Both the position numbers and the translations under genes were made by a program. Under the pieces are notes generated by a model, which saw nothing but the letters and a program-made list of their open reading frames with translations, did no database searches and was not told where the DNA came from. Of a stretch of 64,000 bases of DNA, positions 3,707 through 37,122 are shown piece after piece. How positions within the stretch are numbered: position 1 is the first letter of the stretch; each line of letters opens with the position of its first letter. The DNA comes from an uncultured delta proteobacterium (GTDB lineage Bacteria; Desulfobacterota; Binatia; UBA9968), in assembly GCA_963804165.1 (NCBI GenBank), contig CAWDPO010000037.1, positions 1 to 64,000 of the forward strand. The letters are read 5' to 3'.

Positions 3707-4417
3707 TCAATTGATCCAGCCGCGGTCCCGAAATCGGATCCTGAGCTGCTCTGCAATTGCGTCGGCGGTCGCTTTGGCTCTCCCCTCAAGCGTATTGCTG
3801 CCGCTCGCCTCGCCATAAATCTTCGTCGCGCCAACCACGATCAGTCCTAGCGGATTGCCAGTCGCAATCGCGACAGCGCCCGGCGCGACAATGCCGGGCG
3901 TCTTGCTTCCAGACGAACTAAGCGTCCCTGATCCAACTTTCTTTAAGCCCTCGGGCGTCATCTCGTAGCCTTCCACCACCGTATACATTTCCGAGCTCCC
4001 GGCGCCGAATCCAACCACAAAACGCTTGGCCCCACTGCCGGCCTGGACCGAGACCAAATAGCCACGCATTACACCCTCGCCAACTTGTGGCGCTGCTCCC
4101 GGACCGGCTTGCACTGCGGGAAGACCCATTGCCTGGATATGCGCAACCAAGCTTTTGGCAATGATGGCGCCAAGCCTACGCCCGGTTTCCAGTTCCTCGG
4201 CGGTCGGAGGCGTGGTCGGCGCACTGAGATCGGCGCTAATATAGGAATCGGCGGGGACCTTGGCCGGGTCGGCGATGAAGTCGTAGACCCAGATTTGATT
4301 GGGGCGGGCGAGCCCCGGGCCCGCCATGGTTGTTTGCTGGGTGACTTTCGTCGAGGCGCATCCGGAGAGCACGGCGAAGGCGAAAAAGATTGATATTGCA
4401 CGATTTCGAGTGATCAT
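3707..4417 (-). CDS. DUF4410-like lipoprotein
   Basis: AGGAGG RBS before MITRN; lipobox VLSGC; GSGAKRFVVGFGAGSS and SSGSKTPG motifs. Confidence 0.78.
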   Translation of the reverse strand: MITRNRAISIFFAFAVLSGCASTKVTQQTTMAGPGLARPNQIWVYDFIADPAKVPADSYISADLSAPTTPPTAEELETGRRLGAIIAKSLVAHIQAMGLPAVQAGPGAAPQVGEGVMRGYLVSVQAGSGAKRFVVGFGAGSSEMYTVVEGYEMTPEGLKKVGSGTLSSSGSKTPGIVAPGAVAIATGNPLGLIVVGATKIYGEASGSNTLEGRAKATADAIAEQLRIRFRDRGWIN

Positions 4418-4485
4418 AGCGAACCTCCTATTGCAGTTTGGTCGGGTCACACGATTCCGTCTCACAAATTTTCCACTTCCGTGAT

Positions 4486-5565
4486 TCAAAACGCGGCGAG
4501 TCTTTCAATCAGCCAGAACATGGCCGTGCCGCCGATCGCGTAAGGTGGCAGCAGCCGAAGCATCGCCAGATGCTGCTGCCGTAGCGGCGATAAGCGCACT
4601 CGATCACGTATCCAGAGGCCAAGCAAAATGGATGCAAGCACGACCGCGATGAAGCCGAAATGACCGACCTCGACGCCGATACTGAACAGCAACAGCGCGA
4701 GCGGGATGTGACCTTCCGGCAATCCCACTTCGCTCAACCCGCCGGCGAATCCCAAACCGTGCAACAACCCGAAAGAGAACGCGACGAGCCACGGCTGGCG
4801 CTCTGTCAGACTGGGCTGGGTGGACGAAGACCTGCCGCGGCTACGCAAGATTTCCTTAGCGACAAACACAATGCTGAGGGCGATCATCGCTTCCACCGGC
4901 GGCGAGGGAGCATGAACAAAACCGAGCGTGGCCAAGGTCAAGGTAACGCTGTGCGCTAGGGTGAAGGCGCTGACAGTTTTCACCAGTCTTCCGAAGCCGC
5001 GCACCAGCAGCAACAGACCAAGCACGAACAGCAGATGGTCCACGCCGGTTAAAATGTGCTCGATTCCGAGAAGCAGATACGTGTTAACGATTTCCGTTCG
5101 GCTGGGGGCGGCCTCGACAACGAGTGAAGACAAAGCGGGCGTGAGGCGTGTCACCTGGGTCGTGCCGTCGCGTCGCTCCAATCGCACCAAAACATCGGTC
5201 AATGTTGCCGAAAGCCCGGCGATGCGGATCGTGCCGCCGCTCAAGCCTCCTGCGCATCTGACACTCCAACGCTCGGCATAAGCGTTGGCGGCGAAAGCAC
5301 CGCGCGGTTGGGTCAGGTTCGAACAGCTCTCCGGCAATTGCACGTAAAGACCCAGGCGCAGATCTTCTCCTTTCCCGGGCACCTTCCACAACAGCTCGTA
5401 AGTCTCGTCGCCGGTTTGCTGCAGCTCCAGATAACCGGGGCGCACTTCGTGAGCGAACAGAGGGAATGCGGAAAAAAGAAACAACAGTAAACACACGCAG
5501 CGTGATGCGAGGAGACCGTTCGCCACTCGCCACTTGCCACTCGTGGCTTTCCACTTCTTGCTCAT
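4486..5565 (-). CDS. HupE/UreJ family membrane protein
   Basis: AHEVRPGYL after signal peptide; GIEHILTGVDHLLF, AFTLAHSVTL and FGLLHGLGFA motifs. Confidence 0.9.
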   Translation of the reverse strand: MSKKWKATSGKWRVANGLLASRCVCLLLFLFSAFPLFAHEVRPGYLELQQTGDETYELLWKVPGKGEDLRLGLYVQLPESCSNLTQPRGAFAANAYAERWSVRCAGGLSGGTIRIAGLSATLTDVLVRLERRDGTTQVTRLTPALSSLVVEAAPSRTEIVNTYLLLGIEHILTGVDHLLFVLGLLLLVRGFGRLVKTVSAFTLAHSVTLTLATLGFVHAPSPPVEAMIALSIVFVAKEILRSRGRSSSTQPSLTERQPWLVAFSFGLLHGLGFAGGLSEVGLPEGHIPLALLLFSIGVEVGHFGFIAVVLASILLGLWIRDRVRLSPLRQQHLAMLRLLPPYAIGGTAMFWLIERLAAF

Positions 5566-6539
5566 CGCCGCGCCTCAGCCACTTGCTTCATATCAGTACC
5601 TTCGGCCACTTCCGGCCGCTCGATGGTCACGACGTAGCGCTTTAGCAAAGTTTGATAGAACTTCTCGTTCGCTTCCAAGCGACGGGCGTTAGTCCACTCT
5701 CGGCGCACCGCGGCGCGCACATCTTCCAGCGCCGGCAGGGAGCCATCGGTGCGCGCGCTCATCAAAACCAGATGGACGCCGAAACCGGATTCAATCGGGC
5801 CTTGCCACTGTCCGGTCGGCATCTCGCCGACTCTGGCTGCGAACTTCTCGCCGAACTGCTTTACCAGTTCGCTGGCGGGAAGGGCCTTAAACTCGTTACC
5901 GAGCATGAGGGAATCGCCCAGGGCTGAGACATCGACCTTGTTTCCGGCTCGCCGCAACTCTGCAAGAGTTTGTGCCGCATCGCGGGTAAGATGCGGGCCG
6001 CGCCGCTGCGGGTCGAGATACACCTGGCTGAAGCTGAACCGGCGATCGCCGCGAAACGTGTCGGGGTGTTCCTTCAAGTACGCGCGCAACTGCTCGTCGG
6101 TGGGCTCCGCTTGAGCGGCGACATCTTCGGAGATGAACTCAATCTTCTGGCGCAGCCGGCGGCGGATGATCGTGTCGTCCTTGTCGAGTCCGAGGGCGAT
6201 GGCTTCGCGGGCGAAAACTTCTTCGCGGATATAGTCGCGGATCAGCCCTTCCAATTCGCTTGCACTGGGTGGCCGCCGCCAGGTTCGACTGAAGGTCGTC
6301 GCGAGCGACTCGATCCGCCCTTGGGTGATGAGAATCTTCCCCGGTTGGCTCGCGTCCGTCGAAATGAATTTGAAGGCGGCGAAAATCAACACGCCGAGCA
6401 GCAAAAAGTGCAGCAGCGGTTCGCGGAGAAGGCGTTCGAGTGTCGAGTGTCGAGTGACGAGGGCCGAAAGGAAGAGTGGTGCTGTCATATTGCTCGTGTC
6501 TCGTAAATTGTCTTTCGACACGGTTTCGTGCGGTTTCAC
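5562..6539 (-). CDS. PpiC-type peptidyl-prolyl cis-trans isomerase domain protein
   Basis: LLREPLLHF, GLDKDDTIIRRRLRQK, WQGPIESGFGVHL. Start uncertain because the N-terminus runs through a heptamer array. Confidence 0.85.
   Translation of the reverse strand: MKPHETVSKDNLRDTSNMTAPLFLSALVTRHSTLERLLREPLLHFLLLGVLIFAAFKFISTDASQPGKILITQGRIESLATTFSRTWRRPPSASELEGLIRDYIREEVFAREAIALGLDKDDTIIRRRLRQKIEFISEDVAAQAEPTDEQLRAYLKEHPDTFRGDRRFSFSQVYLDPQRRGPHLTRDAAQTLAELRRAGNKVDVSALGDSLMLGNEFKALPASELVKQFGEKFAARVGEMPTGQWQGPIESGFGVHLVLMSARTDGSLPALEDVRAAVRREWTNARRLEANEKFYQTLLKRYVVTIERPEVAEGTDMKQVAEARR
6436..6463. repeat. Heptamer tandem array (TCGAGTG)n, left arm
   Basis: tcgagtgtcgagtgtcgagtgacgaggg; inverted relative to 6942..7001. 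Confidence 0.85.
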
Positions 6540-6925
6540 CTTCGTCTCATCCTTTCAATGGAGCTGGTCAATATGCCGATGATCTCATCGAGCAATTCGA
6601 TCCGTGGGCCGGACTACACTTTCGGTTAACCAATGCGTCATCCGCTCGTAGCGCCCGCGGGTTTCGCGGGCGGATCCTCGTGCAATGTCGAGGAATCGAA
6701 CGTCCTCAACTCGGCTCAGTCGACCGAAGAAGTATTCACCACAGAGGCACAGAGTCCACAGAGTTCGGAGTAATATTTATCAAAAGCTCTTTCCTCCGCG
6801 TCCTCAGCGTCTCTGCGGTGCAATCTCCAATTTGTTTTAAGTGTTTCCATGTCCGCTGCGACTAGATCAAACAATTGCCGCGCTTTTCGATATCCCCTAA
6901 AACTGTCAAGTGCGCTCTGACTCAT
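6536..6925 (-). pseudogene. Four-helix-bundle protein (TIGR02436-like), disrupted
   Basis: N-terminus MSQSALDSFRGYRKARQLFDLV; downstream, out of frame, RFLDIARGSARETRGRY and LDEIIGILTSSIERMRRR*. The middle is replaced by the palindrome at 6737..6820. Confidence 0.72.
6737..6820. repeat. Palindromic element CACCACAGAGGCACAGAG...CTCTGCGGTG
   Basis: Imperfect 27-bp arms caccacagaggcacagagtccacagag / ctccgcgtcctcagcgtctctgcggtg. Confidence 0.8.
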
Positions 6926-6941
6926 TGTTCTTGTGGTTCTT

Positions 6942-7001
6942 CACTCGACACTCACTCCTCGACACTCTTTCTTTCCTGACCCTCGACACTCGTCACTCGA
7001 C
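6942..7001. repeat. Heptamer tandem array (CACTCGA)n, right arm
   Basis: cactcgacactcactcctcgacactc...ccctcgacactcgtcactcgac. Confidence 0.85.
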
Positions 7002-7011
7002 CTTCCATGGC

Positions 7012-8994
7012 TCAGGCTACCGGCGTATACCAGATCGGCGAAGTGTAGGCGCGCTCAGTTGTGGTCATGGGAACTTCCTTCGGCATTTTGACGCCGAAAT
7101 ATTTCGCGTCGTAGGCGGTCCAGCGCGGCGTCGGGATCTCGATGACACGGCCGTAGTAAAAGGCGCGCTGCGCCGGATCGAAGTCCGGATCTCTCCACAC
7201 GACGATCAGCTCGGTTGCGCCGATGGTGTTGGTCCAGGTCGCGTTCTCAACGTCCACCGTACTGCCCACTGAAGGCAGCTTACCGGTCTTCGGGTCGGGC
7301 TTGCGACCGCCAGCCCAGGCCACGTCGTAAATCTTCTCGTGAAGCTGGCCCTTGGCATCGAGCCAACCCTTGATGATCTGATAGCGATCCAGGTTGGCGC
7401 CGATCGGGTCTTTCAGAGCGGCGGCGAGAAACGTCGGCGCCTTGCCTTTGGGCGCGTTCGACAGATCGCCGCCCATGGGTACGCCCTTGGTGTAGCCGAT
7501 TTTTGCCGGCAAGCGGGTCTGCGCGTCTCTCGCCTCGAAATCGAATCCGCCGAAGAAGCGCACGATCATGCGCGGGCCGGTGGTGCCATAAACTTCCCTG
7601 CGCTTCATGGCGTCGAAAAGGGCGGCGCGAGTATTTTCCGTGGCCCAGACGGCGGCGTAGCCCGAAGCGGTCTGCTCCCAGCCCATGATCACTGCGCCGC
7701 TGGGCGCTTTGATGAAGGGATGAATAGCGCGGTCCGGGCTCGGCTCCTCGCTCGATACCTTGCCGAAAAAATTGTCCTCTTCCACGGCGGTAAGCCCGGT
7801 GTGGGAGTCGGTGCTGCCGACGAGACCGAATTTATAGGGATTGACGCCGAGCTCTGCTTCCAGCTTGAGGCCGTTCTTGAGCGCCGCGCGAGCGTATTCG
7901 AACTCGAACATCTCGGGCTTCTTCGGTTCGCTGAGATCGAGATTGCCTTTGTCCCAGCGCTCGAAGTTAGCGAACTCATCATTGGGCGAGAGAAACGGAT
8001 GGGTTTCACCGTCGCCTTTGATTTGTGTTATTTCGTAGAGCGGTTCCCATCGCGTGCGGCCGTCGGCGTAGGCGCGGTCAATTCTGTTGCCGGTGAACGA
8101 CTCGATGATGGGAAACATGCGCCCGTTGCTAAGATTGCCGTTATGCGCGAGCGCCAGCACTTCGCTGCCGGTCTTCTTCTCCACAGTGGCCATCCATTTC
8201 CAGAGATCGCGCGGATTATCGCTGCCGAGTGGCGGAAAAACGGTGAATGGCTCGACCAATCGAGCGCGGTCGCCGTTTTCGCGGAAGATGACGTTTCGAT
8301 GCAGATTGTTGCCGGCTGTGTTCGAGGTCCACTCGAACCCGATGAACGCCGTGAACCGGCCGGGGTCGTTGGCATCGTCCGCTGCCTTGATCGTTTCGCG
8401 CCAGGCGCTGCGGTACGCTGACGAACCCGGCAAATAGAGCAGCTTCTTAGGGAAAGTACCCTGGGAAAACGCCACGACGATTTCAAAGGCCGCTTCCGCG
8501 CCCTTGCCCGATTGAATCATGTCATACCACCTGCGCCCCGCCGGATCAGCGAGGACTTCAGGCTTGCCCGCGAAGAGGTCCGGGAAAAATCCCATTTGGT
8601 CCGAATGATCGGTGACGGCCATAAAATCGAGCGGACGGGAAAGCTTGGCGCGCTGGCCGCTGGAGGCGACAATCTCTTGTCCCTTGGCAAACCGATAAGC
8701 ATCGGCGGGACCGATGCGAGCACCGAACGCGCCGGCATCCATCGAGAACGACGTGTGCAGATGCGTATCGCCGAAAAACGGCCGGGTGGGAAAATCCCGT
8801 CCCGCATAAGGCGAGTATGGCGATTTGCTGGGGAAGGCTTTAGCGGCTTGCTCCTTATCGAGCGTGCCGACGTCGGTCTGCATCTGCGCCAGCACTGGTA
8901 CGGCGACGCCGGCAGCGGTCGCCGCGGCGATCTTCATGAAGTCACGGCGCTTGATATTTTTTGCTGAACTTATCAGTAATTTCTTCTTTGCCAT
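7012..8994 (-). CDS. DUF3604 domain protein (PHP-like metallo-hydrolase), Tat signal
   Basis: 660 aa; KRRDFMK twin-arginine; GDTHLHTS, LDFMAVTDHS, NLHRNVIFR, HNGNLSNG, GSTDSH, ERAYTSPIWY. Confidence 0.92.
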   Translation of the reverse strand: MAKKKLLISSAKNIKRRDFMKIAAATAAGVAVPVLAQMQTDVGTLDKEQAAKAFPSKSPYSPYAGRDFPTRPFFGDTHLHTSFSMDAGAFGARIGPADAYRFAKGQEIVASSGQRAKLSRPLDFMAVTDHSDQMGFFPDLFAGKPEVLADPAGRRWYDMIQSGKGAEAAFEIVVAFSQGTFPKKLLYLPGSSAYRSAWRETIKAADDANDPGRFTAFIGFEWTSNTAGNNLHRNVIFRENGDRARLVEPFTVFPPLGSDNPRDLWKWMATVEKKTGSEVLALAHNGNLSNGRMFPIIESFTGNRIDRAYADGRTRWEPLYEITQIKGDGETHPFLSPNDEFANFERWDKGNLDLSEPKKPEMFEFEYARAALKNGLKLEAELGVNPYKFGLVGSTDSHTGLTAVEEDNFFGKVSSEEPSPDRAIHPFIKAPSGAVIMGWEQTASGYAAVWATENTRAALFDAMKRREVYGTTGPRMIVRFFGGFDFEARDAQTRLPAKIGYTKGVPMGGDLSNAPKGKAPTFLAAALKDPIGANLDRYQIIKGWLDAKGQLHEKIYDVAWAGGRKPDPKTGKLPSVGSTVDVENATWTNTIGATELIVVWRDPDFDPAQRAFYYGRVIEIPTPRWTAYDAKYFGVKMPKEVPMTTTERAYTSPIWYTPVA

Positions 8995-9147: not shown

Positions 9148-9167
9148 TATTGGACTTTGGTCCAATA
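9148..9167 (-). promoter_or_regulatory. Palindromic operator copy 1, upstream of the DUF3604 unit
   Basis: TATTGGACTTTGGTCCAATA; minus-strand TAGTTT at 9121-9126, 21 bp away. Confidence 0.82.
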
Positions 9168-9235: not shown

Positions 9236-9730
9236 TCATTTCAGACGCGCGAAGGCTACCGGAAAGCGCTGGCGTTCGACGGCCTGATAATAGATTCCTT
9301 TGAGCTGATCGCTCTCGGCGTCATAGGTCAGGGAGTAAGTCGAGCCCGGATAGTTCACGTCGCGCAGTTCTATGAACACTTTCGTCGCATCGCCGTCCCG
9401 CGACGCTTCGGCTTTGCCGACGTGAATCGATTTCGGATTGAAATACGCGGCATCCATCGAACCGTTGGCAGCGATGGATTTGATTTCTAGTACATATCCG
9501 CCGTCCTGCCGCTGCCACCGCCCCTTGAGCTTTTGGAAGGTCCGCTCCGACGTGATCGGATTCGCGGCGAGAAAGATATCCGCCGGTTTGAACTCCCACC
9601 ACCAAAACCCCAGCGAGATGACCACCGCAGTCGCCAGAAAGCCCAGCGCCAAGCGAAAGTTTTGTCGCTTGCCAGTTTGCGATGGGATCGGCTGCTTGGC
9701 TCGCCGATTCTTCTTGGATCGCTTGCTCAT
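9236..9730 (-). CDS. Hypothetical membrane-anchored protein
   Basis: 164 aa; basic N-terminus, one TM helix, then GRWQRQDGGY..YFNP..ELRDVNYPGSTY. Confidence 0.75.
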   Translation of the reverse strand: MSKRSKKNRRAKQPIPSQTGKRQNFRLALGFLATAVVISLGFWWWEFKPADIFLAANPITSERTFQKLKGRWQRQDGGYVLEIKSIAANGSMDAAYFNPKSIHVGKAEASRDGDATKVFIELRDVNYPGSTYSLTYDAESDQLKGIYYQAVERQRFPVAFARLK

Positions 9731-11456
9731 GGGCTATTCGGCATTCGAAACTTCAATCTCCCACTCCTCACCTGGTCATTCGCTAGTTGTCCGCCAGCTT
9801 GCGCAGCCGCTCCGCGTACTTCTCCGCCTCTGCGCTCTGGCCGCGCGCGCTATGAAAGCTCACCAAAGCCTCAAGAATTTCACGATTGTTCGGATGGGCA
9901 ACAAGCGCGGCTTTGAGTTTTGTGATCGCCGCTTCTGATTTCCCCGTCGAGTGCAGCGCGACGGCATAGACATAAGCAAAGCGCCCATTGCCGGGTTCGA
10001 GCACTGTCGCGCGCTCGAGTTCGCCGAGCGCGGCATCGGTGCGCTTCAGCCGCACCAAGGCCAGACCGAGCGCGTGATGCAGCATCGGGTTTTTGGGCGT
10101 TACATTGAGTCCGTCGCGCAGAATGTGCTCGCTTTCCGCGTCGCGGCCCCGCGCACGGTAGAGATCCGCGAGATTCACGTATGCCGGAATAAGGCGGGGA
10201 TCGAGACCGATCGCTGCTTTCATTTCTTCTTCCGCCTTCGCCGCATCGCCTCGATTCGCATAGAAGGTACCAAGATTGACGCGCCCTTCCGCCCGATCCG
10301 CATTATATCGTTGGCTCGCGACGTACTCGGCGCCGGCGCGCTCAAACGCCGCGCGCTGCGCCGCATCTTGATCCGGCGGCACGGGCGCGAGGACCCTCAC
10401 CGCCTCGATGCGCACCGCTTTCAACGGATCGGAGAGGAGGGGTGCGGCTAATGACACGCGCACGTTCAACGGCGCTTGGGCGAGTGACTGCAGAGCGGCG
10501 AGGCGGAGCAGGGGATTGGGATCGCGCAAGCCCTCGGCAAATGTTTCGAGCGCGCGTTGGCTGTCTGCAGCATTGAGTTGAGCTAACGCTGTGGCGCGGA
10601 CGATTGCAGGATGGCTGGCATCGGCGGCGATCGCGCGCAGTTGTGCCGGCGCATCGAGCGCGCCGGCATTGGCAGCGGAAAACACGGCGGCAAAGTGTTG
10701 ATAGCCCTGTAGGTCATGGCCATACCATTTCTTCACTTGCGCTGCCGCCCAGCGCGAGTCGCGATTGGTGTGACAGCCGTTGCAGGCATTCGGCGTACCC
10801 AATTGCAGCGACAGATCCGGCCGCGGCACGCGCAGACTGTGGTCATGGCGCGGATCGACGACCATATAAGTCGTCGTCGGCATGTGACACGCCACGCAGG
10901 CGGCGCCGGCGCTGCCGCTCTTGTGACGATGGTGCGCTGGCGCATCGTATTTATCGGCCGAGTGACAGGACGCGCAGACGGTATTGCCTTCGCCACGCAG
11001 CTTGCCGCTGTGGGGATTGTGGCAGTCGCTGCACGTGACGCCGTTCGCGTACATCTTGCTCTGCAAGAACGAACCCCAGATATAGACCTCGTCACGCTGC
11101 TGGCCGTCGGCGTGATAGAGCGGGCTGGTGAGCAGCGCCGGGCGATAGTAATCGAGGAAGGATTTACCCGGCATGTAGCCTTCGGCGATCTGGCTGCGCC
11201 GCGCATGACATTGCGCGCACACTTCGATCTCCCGCTCGCTGGCGCGCACCTGGGACCGCGCCGCGTTGCCGGTCGCCGGGTTGTGATTCCACGTGATGCC
11301 GCGGCGTTCGTCGAGGCTTACGGTCAGCCCCTTGGATGATTCTTCCCCCTTTGAAAAAGGGAAGGTGTGAAAAAATTGCTGCAAAAAATTGGTGACATAG
11401 CTATATGACTAGTGATATGCTCGCCTCCGTCGGCTTCAATGAGGGAGGCGCTTTGC

Positions 11457-11666
11457 ATGGCTTATTTAACCAAACTCCAGGTGATCGAGCGAGCCAATGG
11501 CCAGCAACAGTTTTACCTGATTTGCCCCGCTCCTCTGGCCCAAGCTCTGGAAATGCAGAAAGGCGAGACCATCGAGTGGGTGGTCGAGGACAAATGGACT
11601 CTGAGGATAACCCGCACTGAGGCTCGCTCGGCCCAGGCGTCGCGGAGGTCCCATGCCCGACGATAG
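11457..11666 (+). CDS. Small AbrB/MazE/SpoVT-like DNA-binding protein inside the IS
   Basis: GGAGG at 11444-11448; MAYLTKLQVI..FYLICPAPLAQALEMQKGETIEWVV fits the AbrB pattern. Overlaps the transposase start. Confidence 0.6.
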   Translation: MAYLTKLQVIERANGQQQFYLICPAPLAQALEMQKGETIEWVVEDKWTLRITRTEARSAQASRRSHARR

Positions 11667-13182: not shown

Positions 13183-13351
13183 CCAAGAATCAAAAAAACA
13201 ACCCCTGAGGCGGCCATCGTACCTCAAACAAAGAGCCTGTGAGGATCGCAGTGATGATTTAGAACTGTTCATGACAGACACAGTTACTTAGTTCGTAGGA
13301 AAATACTTTGGCAATCCAACTCCCACTACTCCTGAATTTTTTCACACCTTC

Positions 13352-25752: not shown

Positions 25753-25772
25753 TATTGGACCTTGGTCCAATA
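25753..25772 (-). promoter_or_regulatory. Palindromic operator copy 4, upstream of the OmpA gene
   Basis: TATTGGACCTTGGTCCAATA; TAGCTT at 25725-25730, 22 bp away. Confidence 0.85.
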
Positions 25773-27642: not shown

Positions 27643-28397
27643 ACTCTTTCCTCTTCTCCCCGGGTCAGGAAACGACGCACCGTGGCATGCTGGGAATGCG
27701 CTAGAAGTTCCTTGGGATCGCCGCCGGCGATCATCGTCCTGCTTTCCGTATCCAGGAACACGCTGTTGTTGCCGATGGTAAAAATGCTCGCCAGCTCGTG
27801 CGTGACCACGACGACGGTGGCGCCCAGACTGTCGCGCAATTCGAGAATCAGATCATCGAGCAAGCGGGAGCTGATCGGATCGAGGCCCGCCGACGGTTCA
27901 TCGAAAAATAGGATCTCCGGATCCAGCGCCATGGCGCGCGCCAGGCCGGCGCGTTTCTGCATGCCGCCGCTGATCTGGGACGGATAGTAATCTTCGAAAC
28001 CTTTCAAACCGACCAGAGCGAGCTTCAGCGATGCCACGTCGCGAATTTCCGCGGGAGTCAAATCCGTATATTCTCCGAGCGATAAACCGACATTTTCGGC
28101 AAGCGTCATCGAGCTCCACAGCGCGCCGCTCTGAAACAGCACGCCCATACGTCGGACCATCTCCTGTCTTTTGGCCGGATCGGCGTGGGTGAAGTTTTCC
28201 TCGCCATAGAAGATGTTTCCCTTGGCCGGTTCGTTAAGACCGATCAGGTGCCGGAGAAGCGTGCTCTTGCCGCAGCCGCTGCCGCCCATGATGATAAAGA
28301 CGTCGCCGTGGTTGATGGTAAAATTAAGGTCCCGCATCAAAACAAAACTGCCGTAGGCCATCGTCAGGTGACTCACGGTGATATGCGCTGTCACCAT
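27639..28397 (-). CDS. MlaF-like ABC ATPase
   Basis: GGSGCGKST, ISGGMQKRAGLARA, FFDEPSAGLDP, VVTHEL. Start re-assigned to MVTAH at 28397. Confidence 0.9.
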   Translation of the reverse strand: MVTAHITVSHLTMAYGSFVLMRDLNFTINHGDVFIIMGGSGCGKSTLLRHLIGLNEPAKGNIFYGEENFTHADPAKRQEMVRRMGVLFQSGALWSSMTLAENVGLSLGEYTDLTPAEIRDVASLKLALVGLKGFEDYYPSQISGGMQKRAGLARAMALDPEILFFDEPSAGLDPISSRLLDDLILELRDSLGATVVVVTHELASIFTIGNNSVFLDTESRTMIAGGDPKELLAHSQHATVRRFLTRGEEERV

Positions 28398-28452
28398 GGT
28401 TGGCAATTGCGTTACTGTGGCTTCGCAACTTACTCCCAAATGAACCTTGAAG

Positions 28453-28521
28453 TTGGAGTATTTGAGTAATCCGCATGGAGCTTTCAGCAGCATTCCATCA
28501 CTCCAGTACTCCAACACTCCA
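28453..28521. repeat. Inverted octamer arrays (TGGAGTA. / .ACTCCA)
   Basis: ttggagtatttgagtaat ... ttccatcactccagtactccaacactcca; same family as 54912..54954. Confidence 0.7.
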
Positions 28522-28534
28522 TTTGCCCAATCCG

Positions 28535-29674
28535 TCAGATCCCCAGGACGTAGAAAACGACGGCGAACACGCCGCAGGCCAAAACGATGGCAACGATACC
28601 GGTGACTACCGCCGAGGTGGCCGCATCGCCGACTGCCGACGAGCTGTTGCCGCACTGAATACCCCGCAAACAACCCGCAAGAGCGATTAGCACGCCGTAG
28701 ACGGAACTTTTGAACACCCCGCCAAAAACGTCGGTCAGGTTGATCGCGTTCGAGGTTTCCCGAAAATAGGTCGTCCAGGAGAGATCGAGCATCCCCACGC
28801 CGATCGCGGCCCCACCCATGACGCCGACGAAGTCGGAATAGAGGCACAGCAAAGGCATCATCAAAATCAATGCGATCACGCGCGGCAAGACCAAAAATTC
28901 CAAAGGAGAAAAGCCCATGGTCGTGAAAGCGTCGATTTCTTGAGTCACCTTCATCGTACCTAGCTGAGCGGCGAAAGCCGCACCGGTGCGCCCGGCCATG
29001 ATAATTCCGGTCATCATGGCTCCCATCTCGCGAATCATCGCGATGCCGACCAGATCGGCGACGTAGATTTGCGCGCCGAACTGTTTTAACTGCACGGCGC
29101 CGACGAAGGCGAGAATCACGCCCACCAAAAAACTGATCAATGTAACGATCGGCAGCGCTTGGGCGCCGCATTGCTGAATTAGAAGAAAAAGGTCCACGGC
29201 CCGAAAGCGCACCTTCATGCGGAAGAGTTTCGCAAAGGTCAGGGTCATGTCGCCGAGAAAAGCGAGCATCTCGGTAAGAGACGAGCCGGCGCCAACAGCG
29301 CTATTGCCCAGCCGTTCGAGGAACGATATTTCGACTTCTTCTTTGCGCGCGCCTTTTTTTTCAGGCACCGCTTCGGCCAACTCTAGCAGCCGTCGCACTC
29401 CGGCGGGCAGGCCGGCGCGATCCATGTTGATGCCACGGCGGCGGCAGAGCTCTGAGACTTCCACGAGAAAAGTTAGAACGCTGCTGTCCCAGGAGCTCAG
29501 CTCGCCGGATTCGAATGCGACGTTTTTGACTTTCGGTGCCGATTCCAGCTCGCGCTGGAGCAAGGACGCGGAAGGAAGGCCTCCGCGCAAACGCCACGCG
29601 CCGGCGAGCCGAACTTCAAGTGCGGCATCGCCCGTAAGCGTGAATGAAAGAACGCTTTCGACCGCCGAGCTCAT
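28535..29674 (-). CDS. MlaE-family permease with N-terminal STAS-like domain
   Basis: WDSS, REMGAMMTGIIMAGRTGAAFAAQLGTMKVTQEIDA, VGDAATSAVV. Confidence 0.9.
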   Translation of the reverse strand: MSSAVESVLSFTLTGDAALEVRLAGAWRLRGGLPSASLLQRELESAPKVKNVAFESGELSSWDSSVLTFLVEVSELCRRRGINMDRAGLPAGVRRLLELAEAVPEKKGARKEEVEISFLERLGNSAVGAGSSLTEMLAFLGDMTLTFAKLFRMKVRFRAVDLFLLIQQCGAQALPIVTLISFLVGVILAFVGAVQLKQFGAQIYVADLVGIAMIREMGAMMTGIIMAGRTGAAFAAQLGTMKVTQEIDAFTTMGFSPLEFLVLPRVIALILMMPLLCLYSDFVGVMGGAAIGVGMLDLSWTTYFRETSNAINLTDVFGGVFKSSVYGVLIALAGCLRGIQCGNSSSAVGDAATSAVVTGIVAIVLACGVFAVVFYVLGI

Positions 29675-29738
29675 CTGCAATCTCTGCGGGTCTGATTCCC
29701 CACAGCTTGCTGTGCAGAACGAATCCTGTCCCAAAGCA

Positions 29739-29831
29739 TGTCATTCCCGCGTGTTTTTAGCGGTGACTCGACTGGGCTCGCCACAGGGGAAATTCTGACC
29801 GGATCTCCGATTAAAAAATTTGGGGGTGACA
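29739..29831. repeat. REP-like palindrome TGTCATTCCCGCG...GGGGTGACA
   Basis: Complementary ends, with internal ttttagcgg/ccgattaaaaa pairing. Confidence 0.6.
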
Positions 29832-29944
29832 ACTTTCGAAAAATTCTCATGAGGTCTCTTGATACGAGCCTGCTGCGTGTAGTTCATTCGTTAAACAGCC
29901 TTCATTCCACTATTCCAGAATTCAAAGGTTAGAGTTCCGCGCTA

Positions 29945-30358
29945 TCAAACATGCCCTGCCGGCGGCTTCCCGTCTGTGCCGCGCTTGAGGGCTTCGCGCA
30001 TCGTTTTGATCAACAACTCGTCGTTGACCGGTTTGCGCAGAAACGCCACAGCCCCGCCCGCCAGCGCTTTCTGCTGGACTCCGATGTCATCGTGGGCCGT
30101 GATAAAAATGACGGGAAGCGGATTGCCATTCCTCGTCAAGCGCTCCTGAAGCTCTAGGCCGTTGAATCCCGGCATCTGCACATCGAGAACCACACAGTCC
30201 GGGTGAAACGACGGCATCGCTTCGATGAGATCGAGGAACTCTTGCCCCGAGGCGAACGTTTCTCCATCCATCCCGAGGGAGCGCACCAGCCGCTTCAATG
30301 CGCGACAGACAGATTCATCGTCATCGACAATGGCGATCAATGGTTTGGCATTGCTCAT
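29945..30358 (-). CDS. Single-domain response regulator
   Basis: IAIVDDDESV, VLDVQMPG, IFITAH, FLRKP; no output domain. Confidence 0.92.
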   Translation of the reverse strand: MSNAKPLIAIVDDDESVCRALKRLVRSLGMDGETFASGQEFLDLIEAMPSFHPDCVVLDVQMPGFNGLELQERLTRNGNPLPVIFITAHDDIGVQQKALAGGAVAFLRKPVNDELLIKTMREALKRGTDGKPPAGHV

Positions 30359-30448: not shown

Positions 30449-30468
30449 TATTGGACCTTAGTCCAATA
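30449..30468 (-). promoter_or_regulatory. Palindromic operator copy 5, upstream of the receiver-MCE unit
   Basis: TATTGGACCTTAGTCCAATA; TAGTTT at 30422-30427, 21 bp away. Confidence 0.85.
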
Positions 30469-30607: not shown

Positions 30608-31224
30608 CTACGCTTTGCCGATTCCTGCGCGTTCGGCGACGCGGACCAGTTCGGCGATCGAATCCACGCCCATCTTATCCATAACGCGGGCGCGGTGAAC
30701 CTTGATGGTCTTTTCCCCGGTGCCGAGCTTGAAAGCAATCTGCTTATTCAACATTCCGGTTACGACCAGAGCCATGACCTCGAGTTCGCGCGGGGTGAGA
30801 CTCTCGACGCGCTTTTGAATCTGATCGATTTCTTCACGCTGGGACTGGTCCTTGGCGGCTCGAGCGAGAGATTGTTCGATGGCCTTGAGCAGATCTTTAT
30901 CCTTCACAGGCTTCTGTAGGAAATCCACGGCGCCGGCCTTCATCGCATTGACGCCCATCGGGATGTTACCGTGGCCGGTGATGAATACGATCGGGAGATT
31001 GCGGTTCATGGTCCGTAATTCGCGCTGGAGGTCGATGCCAGTAAGACCGGGCATACGAACGTCGAGGACGAGACAGCTTGCTTCTTGGCTACCGGGTTTC
31101 GTGCCGAGGAACTCCCGCGCCGATGCGAAAGTTTGCACAGTATGTCCCGCAGACTTGATGAGACGCGCCAAAGCTCGTCGCACCGAAGCATCGTCGTCGA
31201 TGAGAAAAACAGTGTTTCAAGCAT
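30608..31224 (-). CDS. FixJ/NodW/StyR-type response regulator (receiver + LuxR HTH)
   Basis: Adding one A in GAAAC restores MLENTVFLIDDDASVRR; LDVRMPG, FITGHG, DFLQKP, LTPRELEV, NKQIA..TIKVHRARVMDKM. Confidence 0.92.
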
Positions 31225-31850: not shown

Positions 31851-33929
31851 TTACTCCTTCTCCCCCTCCACCGGCACCGTGAAGCAAATCGTCGCACCCC
31901 GGTCGGGATTGTTCTGAGCCCACAACCGCCCGCCGTGAGCCTCGATGATCGAGCGGCTGATGGCGAGCCCCAGGCCGAGGCCATTATTTTTGGTCGTATA
32001 GAAAGGTTGAAAAATCTTTTCGAGCTGGTCGTCTTTCAGCCCCTCGCCCCAATCCCGCACTGCGACGATCGCCATGTGACTAGCCAATTCGGTCCGCACG
32101 GTCACCTGGCGCTCGATCAGCGGGCAATCTTTCATCGCCTGGAAAGCGTTCAGCAACAGATTTAAGATCACCTGTTGCAACTGCACCTTATCACCGTGAA
32201 CTATCGGCGCGGCCGGATCCATTTGGAGCAGGATATTGACCTTGTGCAGGATCGCGTCGCTGTGAATCAGCATAACGACGTCGCGCACGATCGTTTCAAG
32301 ATCCAGTGGCGCAGTTTCGAGATCCCCTTTTCTGACCAATTCACGGACCCGGCGGATGATCTCACCCGCCCGGCTATCGTCCGCCACAATGTCCCGCAGG
32401 ATCGCCTGGAGCTCTCCGATATTCGCCGGGTCGGCAGCAAGGAAACGCTGCGCGGCCTGGGCGTTGCTGAGGATCGCCGTGAGCGGTTGATTCAATTCAT
32501 GCGCCAGCGATGCCGCGAGCTCGCCCATCGTGGTGATTCTTGCTACGTGCGCGAGTTCGTCGCGTTGCCGCTGCACCGTCAATGCACTCTCTTTCTCTTC
32601 GGTAATGTCCACCGCGGCGCCGATCCATTCGTGCACCGCGCCGTTGGGGGCAATGATCGGCACTGCTTGAACATGAAAATGCCGATAGCTCCGATCGCGA
32701 GCGCGTACTTGAAACTCGTTCTCGTACACACGCTTTTGCGTCATTGCCTGCTTCCATAATCGTTCGCTGTGCTCCTGGTCCTTGGGATGAACCGCCGTAA
32801 GCCAACCGAAGTTCCTCACCTCATCTTCGCTCTGACCCGTGAGCTCGTGCCAGCGCGGGGTTGCCAAGAATCCTTCACCATTTGCATCCGCCCGCCAGAC
32901 GATATTCGCGCTCGCCATCACCAAAGCTCTGTAGCGCGCCTCGCTCTCGCGCAAAGCATTTTCTTTGTCGCGCCGCTCGCTCAGCGATGCCGTCAGGAAC
33001 ATCAGCGGAAGAAAAGCCGTGATCAAAAAAAGCTGCAGCGATAGCGCGTTTTCGGCCGCCGACTGCATCGCGAAGGGACCTAATCCAGTCCAGGTACTCA
33101 AGAACGCAAGGTAGGCGGCAACCAGGAGAGAAACACACAAGACGCCTACTTCAAATCGTACCGCTGCCCACAACAGAAACGGAAGCGGCGCGTAGAGTAA
33201 CGCCGGAACCGCAGTTTGCTTGCCGAAGGCATTATACCCCGCGATAATCAGCCCGGCCGTGAGCAGACCAAATTCGACGAAACGCGAAATCGGCGGAGTT
33301 GGCTTTTTTGCCGCTCCGGATCTGAAAGCCATCAATAGCGGTGGGATGATCGTAAGCGTCGACAACGTGTTGGATAAAACCCGAGCGCGAAAAACGTACC
33401 CATATTCCTGTTCCCAGCCGCTCAATACGTAGAGATATGCGGCAATAGCAGATACCAGAAAAGGCGCGAGAAGGACCGCACACAGCACAAATACCGTGAC
33501 GGTACGGAAGCTATCGAGCTGTAGCGGGCCCTTGACGAAGTGGCGCACGCTCATGGCTGCCACGAGCGCCTGACTAAAGTTACCAACGAGCTGACTGAAG
33601 ATGCCCAAAACCGGCACGCCGTCTTTCAGTTGCACAAGGATATGCACCGGGGCGACGGCAAGGAGAAAGATCCACCATTGTCGCGGCGGCGCGAGCAGCA
33701 GCGCCGCCAACAAAATTGCGGTAGGCGGCCAGATGAGCGAAAGATGCGAGTTTGGAAATCTAAGAGATTGGCCGATCAAAGCTCCGGCATAGTAGCCGAT
33801 ACAGACCAAAGACACGAAGAGGGCAGAACGAAACAGGAAGGACGTTCTGCCAAAAATCTCTCTGTCCACGTCGTATGCCGAAACTAGCACGGGCTGGGCC
33901 CATTTCGTCTCCGGATAACTTTCCATCAC
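31851..33929 (-). CDS. Sensor histidine kinase, MASE1 + PAS
   Basis: Multi-TM N-terminus (SLIWPPTAILLA, PFLLWAAVRF); PAS; AHELNQPL, NLLLNA, FYTTK, GLGLGL. Confidence 0.93.
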   Translation of the reverse strand: MMESYPETKWAQPVLVSAYDVDREIFGRTSFLFRSALFVSLVCIGYYAGALIGQSLRFPNSHLSLIWPPTAILLAALLLAPPRQWWIFLLAVAPVHILVQLKDGVPVLGIFSQLVGNFSQALVAAMSVRHFVKGPLQLDSFRTVTVFVLCAVLLAPFLVSAIAAYLYVLSGWEQEYGYVFRARVLSNTLSTLTIIPPLLMAFRSGAAKKPTPPISRFVEFGLLTAGLIIAGYNAFGKQTAVPALLYAPLPFLLWAAVRFEVGVLCVSLLVAAYLAFLSTWTGLGPFAMQSAAENALSLQLFLITAFLPLMFLTASLSERRDKENALRESEARYRALVMASANIVWRADANGEGFLATPRWHELTGQSEDEVRNFGWLTAVHPKDQEHSERLWKQAMTQKRVYENEFQVRARDRSYRHFHVQAVPIIAPNGAVHEWIGAAVDITEEKESALTVQRQRDELAHVARITTMGELAASLAHELNQPLTAILSNAQAAQRFLAADPANIGELQAILRDIVADDSRAGEIIRRVRELVRKGDLETAPLDLETIVRDVVMLIHSDAILHKVNILLQMDPAAPIVHGDKVQLQQVILNLLLNAFQAMKDCPLIERQVTVRTELASHMAIVAVRDWGEGLKDDQLEKIFQPFYTTKNNGLGLGLAISRSIIEAHGGRLWAQNNPDRGATICFTVPVEGEKE

Positions 33930-34023: not shown

Positions 34024-37000
34024 TTACCGCTCCGCAGATAGCAGCGAAGGTTGACTGACAAATGACGTCGGCAGCGTGAAGTAAAACGTCGCGCCCCGGT
34101 CCTGGTTGTTTTCCGCCCACAGGCGCCCGCCGTGAGCCTCGACGATGGACCGGCTGATGGAAAGACCCATACCAAGGCCGTCCGGCTTGGTGGTGTAGAA
34201 AGGTTGAAAAATATTAGCGCCCTCGCCGTTCAGGCCCGTGCCACGGTCACGCACCGAGATCTTGAGCATGCTCGCCCCATCGAGGTCCGCCAGCACTGCG
34301 ACCGAGCGCTCATCCGCGGGTGAATTTTTCAGGGCGTCAAAAGCGTTAAGCAGAAGATTCAACAAGACCTGCTGTAACTGTACTTTGTCCCCCCGCACCA
34401 CCGGCAGGCCTGAGTTAATTTCGAGTAAGACGCGGATGTTATGCAACGTGGCGTCGCTATGAGTCAGCAGCACAACGTCGCTCACGACATTCCCCAAATC
34501 AAGCGGAGCGAACTCGAGTTCTTCCTTTTTCACCAATGTCCGCATCCGCCGGATCACCTCACCCGCGCGACTGTCGTCCTGGACAATGTCCTTCAGGATC
34601 TCCTGTAGTTCCTCCAGATCGGGCGGCTTGACGGCAAGGAAACGCTGGGCCGCCTGCGCATTGCTGAGTATTGCCGTAAGCGGCTGATTCAATTCGTGTG
34701 CGAGCGAGGCCGCTAGCTCTCCCATCGTGGACACGCGAGCGATATGCGCCAGTTCGGCGCGCTGTTGCACCGCTTCCAGTTCTCCCCGCTTGCGCTCGGC
34801 AATGTCAATTGCACAGCCGATGTACCCGAGAAACTCGCCATCGGCTTCAGAGCGCGGCACTGCATGATCCAAGACCCAAGAATATTCACCGTCGAACCTG
34901 CGCAAGCGGTATTCCATCGTAAACTCTTGCCGCGAGTTAAAAGCGTTATTGTAGGTTTCCAGACAGCCAGCTAAATCTTCGCGGTGCACGCCCTCTGCCC
35001 ACCCATTACCAAGCGCCTGTTCCAGCGTGCGGCCGGTAAAGTCGAGCCAACCTTTGTTGAAAAAGGTACAGAGCTTGTCCGTGCCTGACATCCAGATCAT
35101 CACCGGCGCCGTGTCGGCCATGGTACGAAAGCGCGCCTCACTCTCGCGCAACGACTCTTCAGCCCGTTTGCGGTCGGTGATGTCGAGCATCAGACCGCGA
35201 AGCTGCTTTGGCTTGCCATTGTGATGTTGACAATTGACGATATCGTGCACCCAGACGATATCGCCCGACGCTTTGATCATTCGATAATGGAATTCGAATT
35301 CTTCAGCGGTCTGGCTCATCGTCAAACAAGTATCGACCGCCCGCGCCCTGTCGTCGGGATGGATATGAGAGCCCCAAAAATCTTTTTCGTACCACTGCTC
35401 CAGCGGATAACCGAGGAGCTTGACGGCCTGTGGACCGACATAGGTAAATAGCCAAGTCTCGATATCGGCTTCCCAAATAACGGCCGTCGTGGACTCCACC
35501 AGCCGGCGAAAATTCTCCTCGCTTTCGCGTAATCTCTCTTCGGCTTGTTTGCGCTCGGTAATATCCAACACCACGCCCATCCTGCGTGCGCCTCGGCCGC
35601 GCGGGTCATCAACATTTCGGCCCCGTGCCGCGATCCATCGCTCCCTGCCATCGAGTAAGACCACGCGAAACTCCCCTTCATAGGGAAGTCCAATTTGTTC
35701 CGCGCGCTCAATCTCAGCAGCGATACGCGCTCGGTCATCCGGATGGATGCGGTTGACGACGTCTTCGAATCTCAGGGCATCATTTGTGCCGGGACCCAAC
35801 AGCGAACGAAATTGCGGGTTGGCCCAAAAATCGCCGCGCTTCGGGTCGCGCATCCAAAGGCCCAACTCGCCGGCGCTAGCTGCCAGCTCCATGATTTCCT
35901 GAGTTTCCCGTTGCTTGCTCTCAGCGCGGCGCCGGCGCCCCCGTTGCACTAGCAATTCAGCGATCATCGCCGCTTGCAGCGCGATAATAATAAGCGCGCC
36001 GATAATGTACCATTTGTAAAGTTCCCACACCGAGAGGGAACGGAAGCGTAAGACACTGTTCGGAGGCAAGCGGCTTTCGCTGATACCCCAGCGTTTCAAG
36101 GCACGCCAGTCGAACATCGGCACACCGTCAGTGCGAATTTCAAATGGTAATGAGCTTGGCGCAGCCCCCGTCAGAATATGATGCGCCAGTTCGCCGGCGC
36201 GCATTCCTAAAGACGCGACATCCGCAACCGCTCCGCCGACGGCGCCCGTGCCTAGCATCGAGTCCGCCATGACATAGACGGGAACATTGGTCGCCTTGGC
36301 GATCGACTGAGCCGCCTGGGAGGAAATAATCGCGCGGCCCGCGCCATCTCGAAACATCCTGGTGAACAGGATCGCGGTTTGCGGCGGCAACGATGTAACG
36401 GCTTTAAGTATCTCCGGCATGGAGCGCTTGTCCCAGACCTCGACCTCGAGCCGATTGGCAAACGCACGTGCTGCCTGCTGCGCGCGACTCATGACCTGTC
36501 GATCCACTTCCGCGCTGCCGCCGATGAGCACAAGACGCCGTAGATCGGGCTGCAATCGGAGGAGCAGCTCTATCGTTGCGCTTGGATCCGAGCGTTGAGC
36601 GATGCCGCTGACACGGCTATCGATCCGGCCCGCGGGAAACTCCTCTTCGGTCAAGCCAACGGCAACTGCCGGAGTCCCTGGAAATATTTGCTCAAGAAGT
36701 TTTTCTGCAAGGCCCAGGTTACCGACGTAAATCAGTATGACCAGATCCGGAATATCGTCAGCGTATTTGTCGCGCAGGTAGTCGCGGAAAACCCGATGAT
36801 AGCTTTTGCTCGGAAACCTAACGATATCGAGATATTCGGAGTAAAACTCCAGGTCACTCGAATGAAGCTGCCGGAGCTTGTCAACGGCGTTCTGCTCGAC
36901 GACCGGAAAACCGACTGAGAATCGGCTTCCCGTGGAAATCATCAACACGCGTTTGGCGCGCACCCCATCTGCGGCGTGCAGCTCAATCGTCGCCGTCAGG

Positions 37001-37122
37001 CAAACCATCGCGCAGAGCACATAGAGAACCAAATAACGGGAGAGTCGACGTACGCCGTTCGTGATCGCGCTTGGGTGTAAGTGATCCACAGTCGTCGTGA
37101 TACTACGACCGCACCGCAGCAA
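34024..37122 (-). CDS. Sensor histidine kinase with periplasmic binding-protein-like sensor and three PAS domains
   Basis: 1032 aa; signal/TM, FDWRALKRWGI, TM, three HP(D)D/HRED PAS repeats, AHELNQPL, GLGMGL. True start probably further inside. Confidence 0.92.
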   Translation of the reverse strand: MLRCGRSITTTVDHLHPSAITNGVRRLSRYLVLYVLCAMVCLTATIELHAADGVRAKRVLMISTGSRFSVGFPVVEQNAVDKLRQLHSSDLEFYSEYLDIVRFPSKSYHRVFRDYLRDKYADDIPDLVILIYVGNLGLAEKLLEQIFPGTPAVAVGLTEEEFPAGRIDSRVSGIAQRSDPSATIELLLRLQPDLRRLVLIGGSAEVDRQVMSRAQQAARAFANRLEVEVWDKRSMPEILKAVTSLPPQTAILFTRMFRDGAGRAIISSQAAQSIAKATNVPVYVMADSMLGTGAVGGAVADVASLGMRAGELAHHILTGAAPSSLPFEIRTDGVPMFDWRALKRWGISESRLPPNSVLRFRSLSVWELYKWYIIGALIIIALQAAMIAELLVQRGRRRRAESKQRETQEIMELAASAGELGLWMRDPKRGDFWANPQFRSLLGPGTNDALRFEDVVNRIHPDDRARIAAEIERAEQIGLPYEGEFRVVLLDGRERWIAARGRNVDDPRGRGARRMGVVLDITERKQAEERLRESEENFRRLVESTTAVIWEADIETWLFTYVGPQAVKLLGYPLEQWYEKDFWGSHIHPDDRARAVDTCLTMSQTAEEFEFHYRMIKASGDIVWVHDIVNCQHHNGKPKQLRGLMLDITDRKRAEESLRESEARFRTMADTAPVMIWMSGTDKLCTFFNKGWLDFTGRTLEQALGNGWAEGVHREDLAGCLETYNNAFNSRQEFTMEYRLRRFDGEYSWVLDHAVPRSEADGEFLGYIGCAIDIAERKRGELEAVQQRAELAHIARVSTMGELAASLAHELNQPLTAILSNAQAAQRFLAVKPPDLEELQEILKDIVQDDSRAGEVIRRMRTLVKKEELEFAPLDLGNVVSDVVLLTHSDATLHNIRVLLEINSGLPVVRGDKVQLQQVLLNLLLNAFDALKNSPADERSVAVLADLDGASMLKISVRDRGTGLNGEGANIFQPFYTTKPDGLGMGLSISRSIVEAHGGRLWAENNQDRGATFYFTLPTSFVSQPSLLSAER

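Follow-up and report, generated by a model that had tools for sequence, protein, structure and literature searches.

A recurrent 20-bp palindrome in a 64,000-nucleotide stretch of DNA from an uncultured delta proteobacterium (Binatia; GenBank assembly GCA_963804165.1, contig CAWDPO010000037.1, positions 1 to 64,000, the whole of which is called the window here) probably serves as the operator of a single transcription factor. Six copies stand ahead of genes encoding mostly secreted or membrane proteins, and we consider it likely that all six are bound by the response regulator read from 30611-31216, which, once phosphorylated, would act as a class II activator of five gene blocks. The same 20-mer, at the same distance from a -10-like box, recurs in many phyla, and the system in the window would appear, from its sequence, to be one local copy of a widespread regulon in its ordinary working mode. 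An initial annotation of this region had described a self-contained regulon under an adjacent FixJ-type regulator and two local kinases; its account of the sites was borne out, and its account of the regulon as self-contained was not.

Palindromes and promoter geometry in the window

A pattern scan of the window found exact matches to TATTGGACYTTRGTCCAATA at 9148, 17057, 23292, 25753 and 30449 (plus-strand coordinates) and a copy with three mismatches at 17394, as the initial annotation had reported. No match arose in any of 100 dinucleotide-preserving shuffles, and 0 are expected in the window. All six copies keep the 16-bp core TTGGAC-N4-GTCCAA intact; the one at 17394, previously called degenerate, is indeed altered, but in its outer flanks only, and it heads a decayed gene. 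Further copies were sought in the window with the 16-bp core at up to three mismatches, which gave 22 matches against 23.1 expected; the 16 matches that are not already accounted for are at chance level, and the window therefore holds no further copy, as had been stated. A scan of the window for the consensus together with its box added one match, inside the porin gene and on the opposite strand, which we judged to be chance.

The minus strand is the gene strand of all copies, and all six cores read GGACY-AA-RGTCC on it (TATTGGACCAAAGTCCAATA at operator 1; Table 1). At the five full copies, in order of position, the palindrome is followed on this strand after 21, 21, 21, 22 and 21 nt by the boxes TAGTTT, TAGAAA, TAGAAC, TAGCTT and TAGTTT, exactly as first described. 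From the palindrome centre to the first base of the -10-like box is a distance of 31.5 bp, or 32.5 bp where the spacer is 22 nt, so that, if the box spans -12 to -7, the site would be centred at about -43.5 and overlap the -35 position. The hexamer 17 nt upstream of the box, at the -35 position, is TATACG, TATACA and TATACA in three copies, again in agreement with the initial annotation, and TAGTCC and AGTCGC in the other two. None of the five promoters passes a 9-of-12 sigma-70 consensus scan, which fits dependence on an activator at a weak core promoter. Generic sigma-70 and terminator scans of 3000-38500 showed no excess and nothing at the operator sites, and Rfam at gathering thresholds gave no match in the window.

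Two kinds of element were observed near the operators. At two of them a TA box also occurs in the opposite direction at offset 20 on the plus strand (TATAAA, within 25773-25800; TAGTCA, within 30469-30496), which could be chance or mark weak divergent promoters. Three operators have imperfect inverted repeats with TTCGGATTTCG-like words 40-130 bp upstream (23334-23393, 25826-25898 and 30509-30584); such words number 8 in the window against 3.2 expected, and similar ones precede the motif at five of the loci in other genomes described below (L014, L030, L032, L094 and L117). These hairpins may act as terminators for the units before them or represent a REP-like (repetitive extragenic palindromic) element.

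Distribution of the palindrome and its predicted targets

Bacterial and archaeal genomes, one per species, were scanned for exact palindromes of the form TATTGGAC-N4-GTCCAATA, the arms being held fixed, and at least 123 loci were recovered. Among the 124 unique exact sites at the listed loci, the central four bases are YAAR in 46 and YTTR in 47, that is, 93/124 where chance would give 8/256 (3%). When these 93 sites are read with the AA strand forward, TA is found at offset 20-22 in 86/93 in the forward direction versus 13/93 backward, and the fuller box TAnnn[TA] in 75 versus 8. Thus the palindrome is asymmetric at its AA centre alone, and the orientation of that centre indicates on which side a -10-like box will stand at a fixed distance. 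In the window this orientation rule is obeyed by all six copies, with the box present at the five full ones, and the proposal of a promoter-proximal operator of fixed geometry gains support both from the spacing and from this coupling across phyla.

Carriers among the listed loci include Binatia, "delta proteobacterium", Thermodesulfobacteriota, Syntrophobacteraceae, Desulfobacterales, Rokubacteria and Methylomirabilis; Acidobacteria (Blastocatellia, Bryobacteraceae, Vicinamibacteraceae), Verrucomicrobia and Planctomycetes (Gemmataceae, Tepidisphaeraceae); and Gammaproteobacteria, Dongiaceae, Paraburkholderia, Caballeronia and Burkholderiaceae. On long contigs of relatives, exact sites lie at about 402, 428, 458 and 460 kb of one contig and as pairs some 80 and 91 kb apart on others. 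With exact sites tens of kilobases apart, the regulon is generally not confined to one island, and with the same 20-mer and -10 spacing found in many phyla the term self-contained has to be given up. This distribution also bears on the idea of a dispersed repeat, of REP or miniature inverted-repeat transposable element type, without any regulatory role. Such a repeat would suit the identity of the 20-mers over a span of 22 kb and the imperfect hairpins found 40-130 bp upstream at three of the copies; nonetheless, similarity between copies stops at the palindrome and the fixed -10 box, and the same 20-mer stands before unrelated genes in many phyla, coupled to gene direction, which makes a repeat of this kind extremely improbable.

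The first sizeable open reading frame (ORF) in the predicted direction was called for 81 sites, and 80 of these were submitted to Pfam (a 60-aa ORF of L082 was omitted). A family was assigned to 43/80, comprising 10 receiver-only proteins, the commonest first target across the listed genomes, 4 sulfatases, 2 OmpA, 2 HdeA and 2 family-3 solute-binding proteins, and single cases of MlaE, PqiA, OmpW, ecotin, Fe/Mn superoxide dismutase, carbonic anhydrase, aquaporin, a PLD-type enzyme, DUF3300, DUF4136, DUF308, EipA and an Asp-Al_Ex permease. These families overlap with the gene content of the window. Clustering of 460 flank ORFs also brought out two recurrent unnamed families, of 10 ORFs at 8 loci and 9 ORFs at 9 loci; the first has a relative in the window at 17148-17468, the second at 22463-23113 and 21716-22090. 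Exported and membrane proteins predominate in this content, which, going by family names, would fit an envelope or periplasmic stress programme.

Exact arms around a CGTG or CACG centre were seen in L031 and L070 (both Bradyrhizobium), L090 and L092, with a TA box 21 nt away on one side in the first, second and third of these and none in L092. Such sites may represent the operator in a lineage-specific form.

The adjacent regulator as candidate binding protein

The most likely binder of the palindrome is the response regulator that ends 139 bp from operator 5, a proposal for which neighbourhood, conservation, structure-based precedent and loci chosen by homology all speak. Its domains (Pfam Response_reg, 8.4e-24; GerE, 1.2e-19) would place it in the NarL/FixJ family. 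Compared as a whole with solved structures it is closest to StyR (1yio, 5.8e-56) and FixJ (5xso, 2.1e-46), and the best solved match of its DNA-binding domain is EL222 (8a5r, 3.5e-15), with StyR, FixJ and NarL also matching. At least 7836 close relatives were found at E<=1e-40; the 120 best are 75-93% identical, bear generic names only and in several cases come from Binatia, a pattern that by itself makes a Binatia-like source probable for the window. The FixJ-type regulator named in the initial annotation stands as the best candidate binder, with the two kinases feeding it. FixJ proper was considered and rejected, as the best NCBIfam match, the FixJ equivalog NF006900, scores 218.2 bits against a cut-off of 255, and the window has no FixK or fixNOQP context.

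Neighbourhood was assessed by all-against-all clustering of the 460 flank ORFs. The largest cluster is that of receiver and regulator proteins (16 ORFs at 14 loci, one member being an unrelated OmpR-type regulator in L030), followed by histidine kinases (11 ORFs at 10 loci). At six loci a full-length orthologue of the regulator (47-85% identity) terminates 29-139 bp short of a site downstream on the same strand: L068 and L076 (Binatia), L074 (Caballeronia), L043 (Rokubacteria), L017 (a gammaproteobacterium) and L034 (Desulfatiglandales). In L001 (Verrucomicrobiae) the orthologue lies 758 bp from the site, L103 and L104 hold C-terminal fragments, and in L047 and L052 a kinase-regulator pair is divergent from the site. 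The co-occurrence of motif and regulator that the initial annotation had suggested looking for in relatives was accordingly found, by the exact-palindrome scan, in at least seven lineages. In L068, L076, L074, L043 and L017 the gene immediately before the orthologous regulator encodes a kinase, and the order kinase-regulator-site-receiver of the window is found again in L068, L074 and L076. In an alignment of ten regulators, invariant columns are concentrated in the helix-turn-helix (HTH; NKQ...LG..EKT.KVHR). In L076 (2001-2316), tandem sites 296 bp apart were observed between the regulator and the receiver-only gene, the regulator-proximal one with an atypical CTGG centre.

The two histidine kinases upstream of the regulator are paralogues with 51% identity over 380 residues, and around the phospho-His helix a run of 32 residues is the same in both. 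Identical phospho-acceptor regions in kinases point to a common partner, and the shared stretch suggests one for both kinases here. Their sensor parts differ, with MASE1-PAS in kinase 1 versus a periplasmic-binding-protein-like domain and three PAS domains in kinase 2. Kinase 1 is 84% identical over 405 aa to the kinase adjoining the orthologous regulator in L068. The gap between kinase 1 and the regulator (31217-31850) is about 630 bp, compared with about 70 bp in L068, and holds a 97-aa ORF (31229-31522) with no family match.

Loci selected independently of the motif were also considered. In a tblastn search of plasmids the regulator matched 835 records, none reaching 60% identity; of the 60 listed, 13 were examined with 20-kb flanks, chosen by regulator homology alone (50-60% identity) and without reference to the motif. 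Sites occur in all three loci whose regulator has a Lys-type recognition helix (EKT or VKT, the Lys being in its first turn), a variant site in L126 being counted, and a YWWR-centred site in none of the ten with an E[IV]T helix, among them the toluene-monooxygenase-linked L129 and L127, which is near fixNOQP-type (cbb3-oxidase) genes. With the L126 variant counted, this split is one arrangement in 286. L124 (Paraburkholderia sp. PREW-6R; EKT) has three sites, one of them 95 bp past the regulator, and L125 (P. phenoliruptrix pSYMBR3459; EKT) has four, which, to judge from where they lie and how their centres are oriented, face a cation:proton antiporter, a TrkA-C permease and two small hypothetical genes that precede DUF3300-DUF2950 and glycogen phosphorylase-GlgX, respectively. 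In L126 (Caballeronia insecticola; VKT), CATAAGTCCACGGTCCCATA lies between regulator and receiver and is followed after 21 nt by TAGCCT. At 20660-20720 and at about 18164, L126 has two sites with the half nearer the promoter, GGTCCCATA, in common, each followed by a TA box after the usual 21 nt; in one of the two the distal half runs in direct orientation (AGTCC-AC-GGTCC). The regulator helix there reads VKTIKVHRG, and helix and operator may have co-varied.

The initial annotation had not recognized the motif from any described regulon, a view that has to be revised. EL222, the LOV-HTH photoreceptor of Erythrobacter litoralis, has the 12-bp consensus RGNCYWWRGNCY and the C120 operator TAGGTAGCCTTTAGTCCATG (excerpt of PMC10521638, which gives the consensus second-hand), and all six window cores fit this consensus at every position. 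Its recognition helix, SEKTVKMHRG, resembles GEKTIKVHRA of the regulator. EL222 differs in that it senses light as a one-component protein that has a LOV domain but lacks a receiver; its consensus, read as a direct repeat, is also less strict, allowing N at the third position, whereas the window has a strict 20-bp palindrome with conserved TATT/AATA flanks. The DosR box TTSGGGACTWWAGTCCCSAA is likewise a 20-bp palindrome with the core GGAC-YWWR-GTCC (excerpt of PMC2275270), and DosR/DevR of Mycobacterium tuberculosis, with which the window system shares this operator core, is also a NarL/FixJ-family response regulator. The motif can therefore be classed, by its core, with the EL222/DosR operators. 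DosR/DevR is served by two sensor kinases. Its C-terminal domain (1zlj) matches that of the window regulator at 2.3e-5, far more weakly than EL222, StyR and FixJ; its box has the flanks TTSG...CSAA in contrast to TATT...AATA; and its regulon concerns hypoxia and dormancy, whereas the predicted targets here are envelope proteins. The DosR dormancy regulon was accordingly rejected as an identification, DosR being only the 16th-best solved match to the DNA-binding domain. StyR, FixJ and TodT/TmoT-type regulators have the same REC+GerE architecture and are the closest full-length homologues, but their recognition helices are EVT or PRT, in contrast to EKT in the subfamily of the window. A literal-string literature search, to which logos and supplements are out of reach, found no such operator described for a response regulator, and the EL222 consensus string appeared in PMC10521638 alone.

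The known systems also raise the question of whether another EL222/DosR-like HTH protein encoded elsewhere, such as a LOV-HTH protein or a LuxR-type solo, binds the palindromes, with the regulator, kinases and receiver being no more than frequent targets or neighbours. The EL222 consensus was defined for a one-component LOV-HTH protein rather than a response regulator (excerpt of PMC10521638), DosR-type proteins bind the same GGAC-N4-GTCC core (excerpt of PMC2275270), the regulator in the window is frameshifted as assembled, and operator 5 would drive the next gene rather than the regulator. Against this, no second transcription-factor family was found to recur in the flanks of the 123 listed motif loci, the regulator, with certain HTH residues invariant, is found beside the motif across no fewer than seven lineages, and the motif tracks the helix type of the regulator in homology-selected loci. 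On balance, we regard a different binder as quite unlikely.

In the mechanism that we propose for the adjacent regulator, the two paralogous upstream kinases would phosphorylate the REC+GerE protein, with its EL222-type DNA-binding domain, upon a presumed signal. The phosphorylated dimer would bind GGACY-AA-RGTCC at a site centred some 43 bp upstream of the predicted start, over a weak -35, and recruit sigma-70 RNA polymerase in the class II manner of LuxR, so that five blocks of mostly secreted or membrane proteins are switched on. The receiver-only paralogue, encoded by the first gene beside the regulator and 44% identical to the regulator's receiver, may drain phosphate from the kinases and so provide negative feedback as a phosphate sink. 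LuxR at the lux box offers a parallel for the geometry, as its box is a 20-bp inverted repeat overlapping -35, bound through a GerE-type HTH, from which the dimer recruits sigma-70 polymerase by class II activation (excerpt of PMC5001607); it differs in sensing acyl-homoserine lactone, in having no receiver domain and in its unrelated operator sequence. An EL222 site that replaces the lux box and overlaps the luxI -35 gives sigma-70-dependent, roughly 5-fold activation in E. coli (excerpt of PMC5001607).

Repression by the same regulator was weighed as well, the palindrome over -35 blocking RNA polymerase until a signal frees the site. The palindrome does cover the -35 position, a placement equally compatible with repression, and EL222 represses from a site inside a strong core promoter (excerpt of PMC5001607). 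However, that site is reported there to lie between -35 and -10, not 21 nt upstream of -10; the window promoters lack consensus-like -35/-10 pairs, none of the five passing the sigma-70 scan; and the distance from centre to box is fixed where LuxR-type and EL222 sites activate. Repression therefore seems unlikely.

Several observations weigh against activation by the adjacent regulator, the first being the state of its gene. The initial annotation had placed the regulator at 30608..31224, but no single open frame spans this interval: relative to the receiver domain the ATG at 31224 is shifted by one base, with two in-frame stops shortly before it, the 5' break (31183-31226) adjoins a short A run, and the first in-frame start, GTG at 31183, would drop the first strand and the acidic-pocket Asp residues. 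The DDD and LDVRMPG motifs are within the open frame, but as assembled no in-frame start lies ahead of them, and the N-termini of the closest relatives are intact; the regulator may thus be a pseudogene in this genome. Operator 5 would drive the downstream receiver gene and not the regulator, so the two do not stand together as in classic autoregulation. At the 17394 copy, AAAACT takes the place of the -10 box. The centre is of another type in 31/124 listed sites, of which 12/31 have a TA box on either side and the rest look like background. The genome scan took exact palindromes with fixed arms, which leaves its total (at least 124 sites) a lower bound and arm variation out of view. In the plasmid set, the helix classes were drawn after the site outcome had been seen (post hoc, n = 13), L126 has a variant and no palindrome, L132 has a 1-mismatch match (centre TGTC) inside a kinase gene and L131 a loose consensus-plus-box match, so that the split is supportive rather than a clean test. 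More generally, binding, start sites, activation and feedback are all argued here by comparison.

The broken regulator could also mean that the island is a decaying relic, whose operators remain while regulator, sulfatase and one target gene are broken and joint control has been lost. The frame problem at 31216-31224, the frameshift near 16380 in the sulfatase, the truncated and frame-broken gene headed by the 17394 copy, and transposase and integrase genes at 533-2620 are all as such a relic would have them. Single-base breaks in short runs are a common error of long-read assemblies, and the regulator break falls in a short A run, where assembly error is plausible; moreover, the five operators and their boxes are all intact, and the remainder of the regulator is 85-93% identical to intact relatives. 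We consider decay a rather doubtful explanation, albeit one with several observations behind it, and retain activation by the adjacent regulator as the probable one.

Gene blocks, surroundings and possible reach of the regulon

Features of the window that belong to the predicted regulon are collected in Table 1. Most gene labels of the initial annotation were upheld by Pfam; the label HAD was not, as the ORF at 14138-15184 has no Pfam family even at E<=1. Pfam at E<=1 gave nothing usable for 11 window ORFs without a family, and NCBIfam at E<=0.001 gave no match for the DUF3604 protein or for 8 submitted ORFs without a family.

Table 1. Predicted operators, regulatory genes and gene blocks in the window
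Feature	Position	Strand	Details
Operator 1	9148..9167	-	-10-like TAGTTT 9121-9126
Operator 2	17057..17076	-	-10-like TAGAAA 17030-17035; -35 position TATACG
Sixth copy	17394..17413	-	perfect 16-bp core, changed outer flanks, no TA box at the usual distance
Operator 3	23292..23311	-	-10-like TAGAAC 23265-23270; -35 position TATACA
Operator 4	25753..25772	-	22-nt spacer; -10-like TAGCTT 25725-25730
Operator 5	30449..30468	-	139 bp past regulator stop codon; -10-like TAGTTT 30422-30427; -35 position TATACA
Unit 1	3707..8994	-	DUF3604 with TAT signal 7012-8994; PpiC-type rotamase (Rotamase_2) 5562-6539; HupE/UreJ 4486-5565; DUF4410 3707-4489 (all Pfam)
Unit 2	9236..17002	-	sulfatase, ATG 17002, frameshift near 16380, C-terminal part ends 15405; ORF without family 14138-15184; cytochrome-c-like ORFs 13726-14226 and 13259-13729; ORF without family 11401-13281; multihaem/TPR protein 9783-11384; ORF 9236-9730 (families by Pfam)
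Decayed remnant, ~160-aa secreted protein family	17148..17468	-	sixth motif copy at 5' end
Unit 3	17513..23113	-	hypotheticals 22463-23113, 21716-22090, 21467-21700, 21017-21373; OprB porin 19611-20984, EAL 18619-19407, AI-2E transporter 17513-18583 (these three Pfam)
Unit 4	24984..25667	-	OmpA-family protein (Pfam)
Unit 5	26006..30358	-	receiver-only protein 29945-30358; STAS-MlaE 28535-29734; MlaF-type ATPase within 27639-29171; MlaD/MCE 26632-27642; ABC_trans_aux lipoprotein 26006-26635 (all Pfam)
REC+GerE response regulator	30608..31224	-	open frame 30611-31216, without start codon
Histidine kinase 1	31851..33929	-	MASE1-PAS-HisKA-HATPase
Histidine kinase 2	34024..37122	-	periplasmic-binding-protein-like domain, three PAS, HisKA-HATPase

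Several members of the blocks have counterparts next to the motif elsewhere. Relatives of three unit 3 hypotheticals (22463-23113, 21716-22090 and 21467-21700) adjoin it at other loci, and OmpA genes lie downstream of it in L027 and L050. The sulfatase is split by a single frame change near 16380 (16340-16420), and its halves are both well conserved, being 44-63% identical to the intact sulfatases of L053 and L017. The remnant at 17148-17468 has lost its N-terminal third and has its C-terminus in another frame; its family has LT..E/Q-like repeats and weak, below-cut-off Pfam matches to Metal_resist (E about 0.004), and in L118 the motif directly precedes a shortened copy of the same family, an arrangement resembling that at 17394.

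Other features of the window were noted in passing. The MlaF-type ATPase ORF (27639-29171) has 510 aa, but its ABC domain begins only at residue 280, and for about its first 210 codons it runs over the MlaE ORF in a different frame; it is probably an over-extended ORF rather than a fusion. At the left edge, 533-2620 holds a DDE transposase fragment (DUF772/DDE_Tnp_1), an IS91-type zinc-binding transposase domain and a tyrosine integrase, given which the island may have been acquired or rearranged. UvrA-like domains (ABC_tran, UvrA_inter, UvrA_DNA-bind) extend over four consecutive minus-strand ORFs at 39889-45564, which could be two paralogues or further frame breaks.

Activation by a response regulator from about -43 is in itself textbook, and the moderate interest of the system lies in its conservation across phyla, its link to EL222 and its direction-coupled centre within a palindromic operator. 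As a tentative and broader reading, which we hold to be possible rather than probable, one almost invariant 20-bp operator and a Lys-type FixJ-family regulator might define an undescribed envelope or periplasmic stress regulon of Binatia, Thermodesulfobacteriota, Acidobacteriota, Verrucomicrobiota, Planctomycetota, Rokubacteria and Burkholderiaceae, with receiver-only feedback proteins, sulfatases, OmpA/OmpW, HdeA, Spy/CpxP-like proteins and MCE/Mla/Pqi lipid transporters as members and the AA/TT centre setting the direction of activation. If the centre does set direction, an EL222-type dimer would sit on its site in a polar, direct-repeat-like manner and not symmetrically. The EL222 operator, widely used in optogenetics, would gain a natural context, and a large, unnamed subfamily of FixJ-type regulators would gain a testable operator and promoter design. 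Dozens of envelope genes carrying domains of unknown function, mostly from uncultured soil and sediment bacteria, would then be joined as one co-regulated set.

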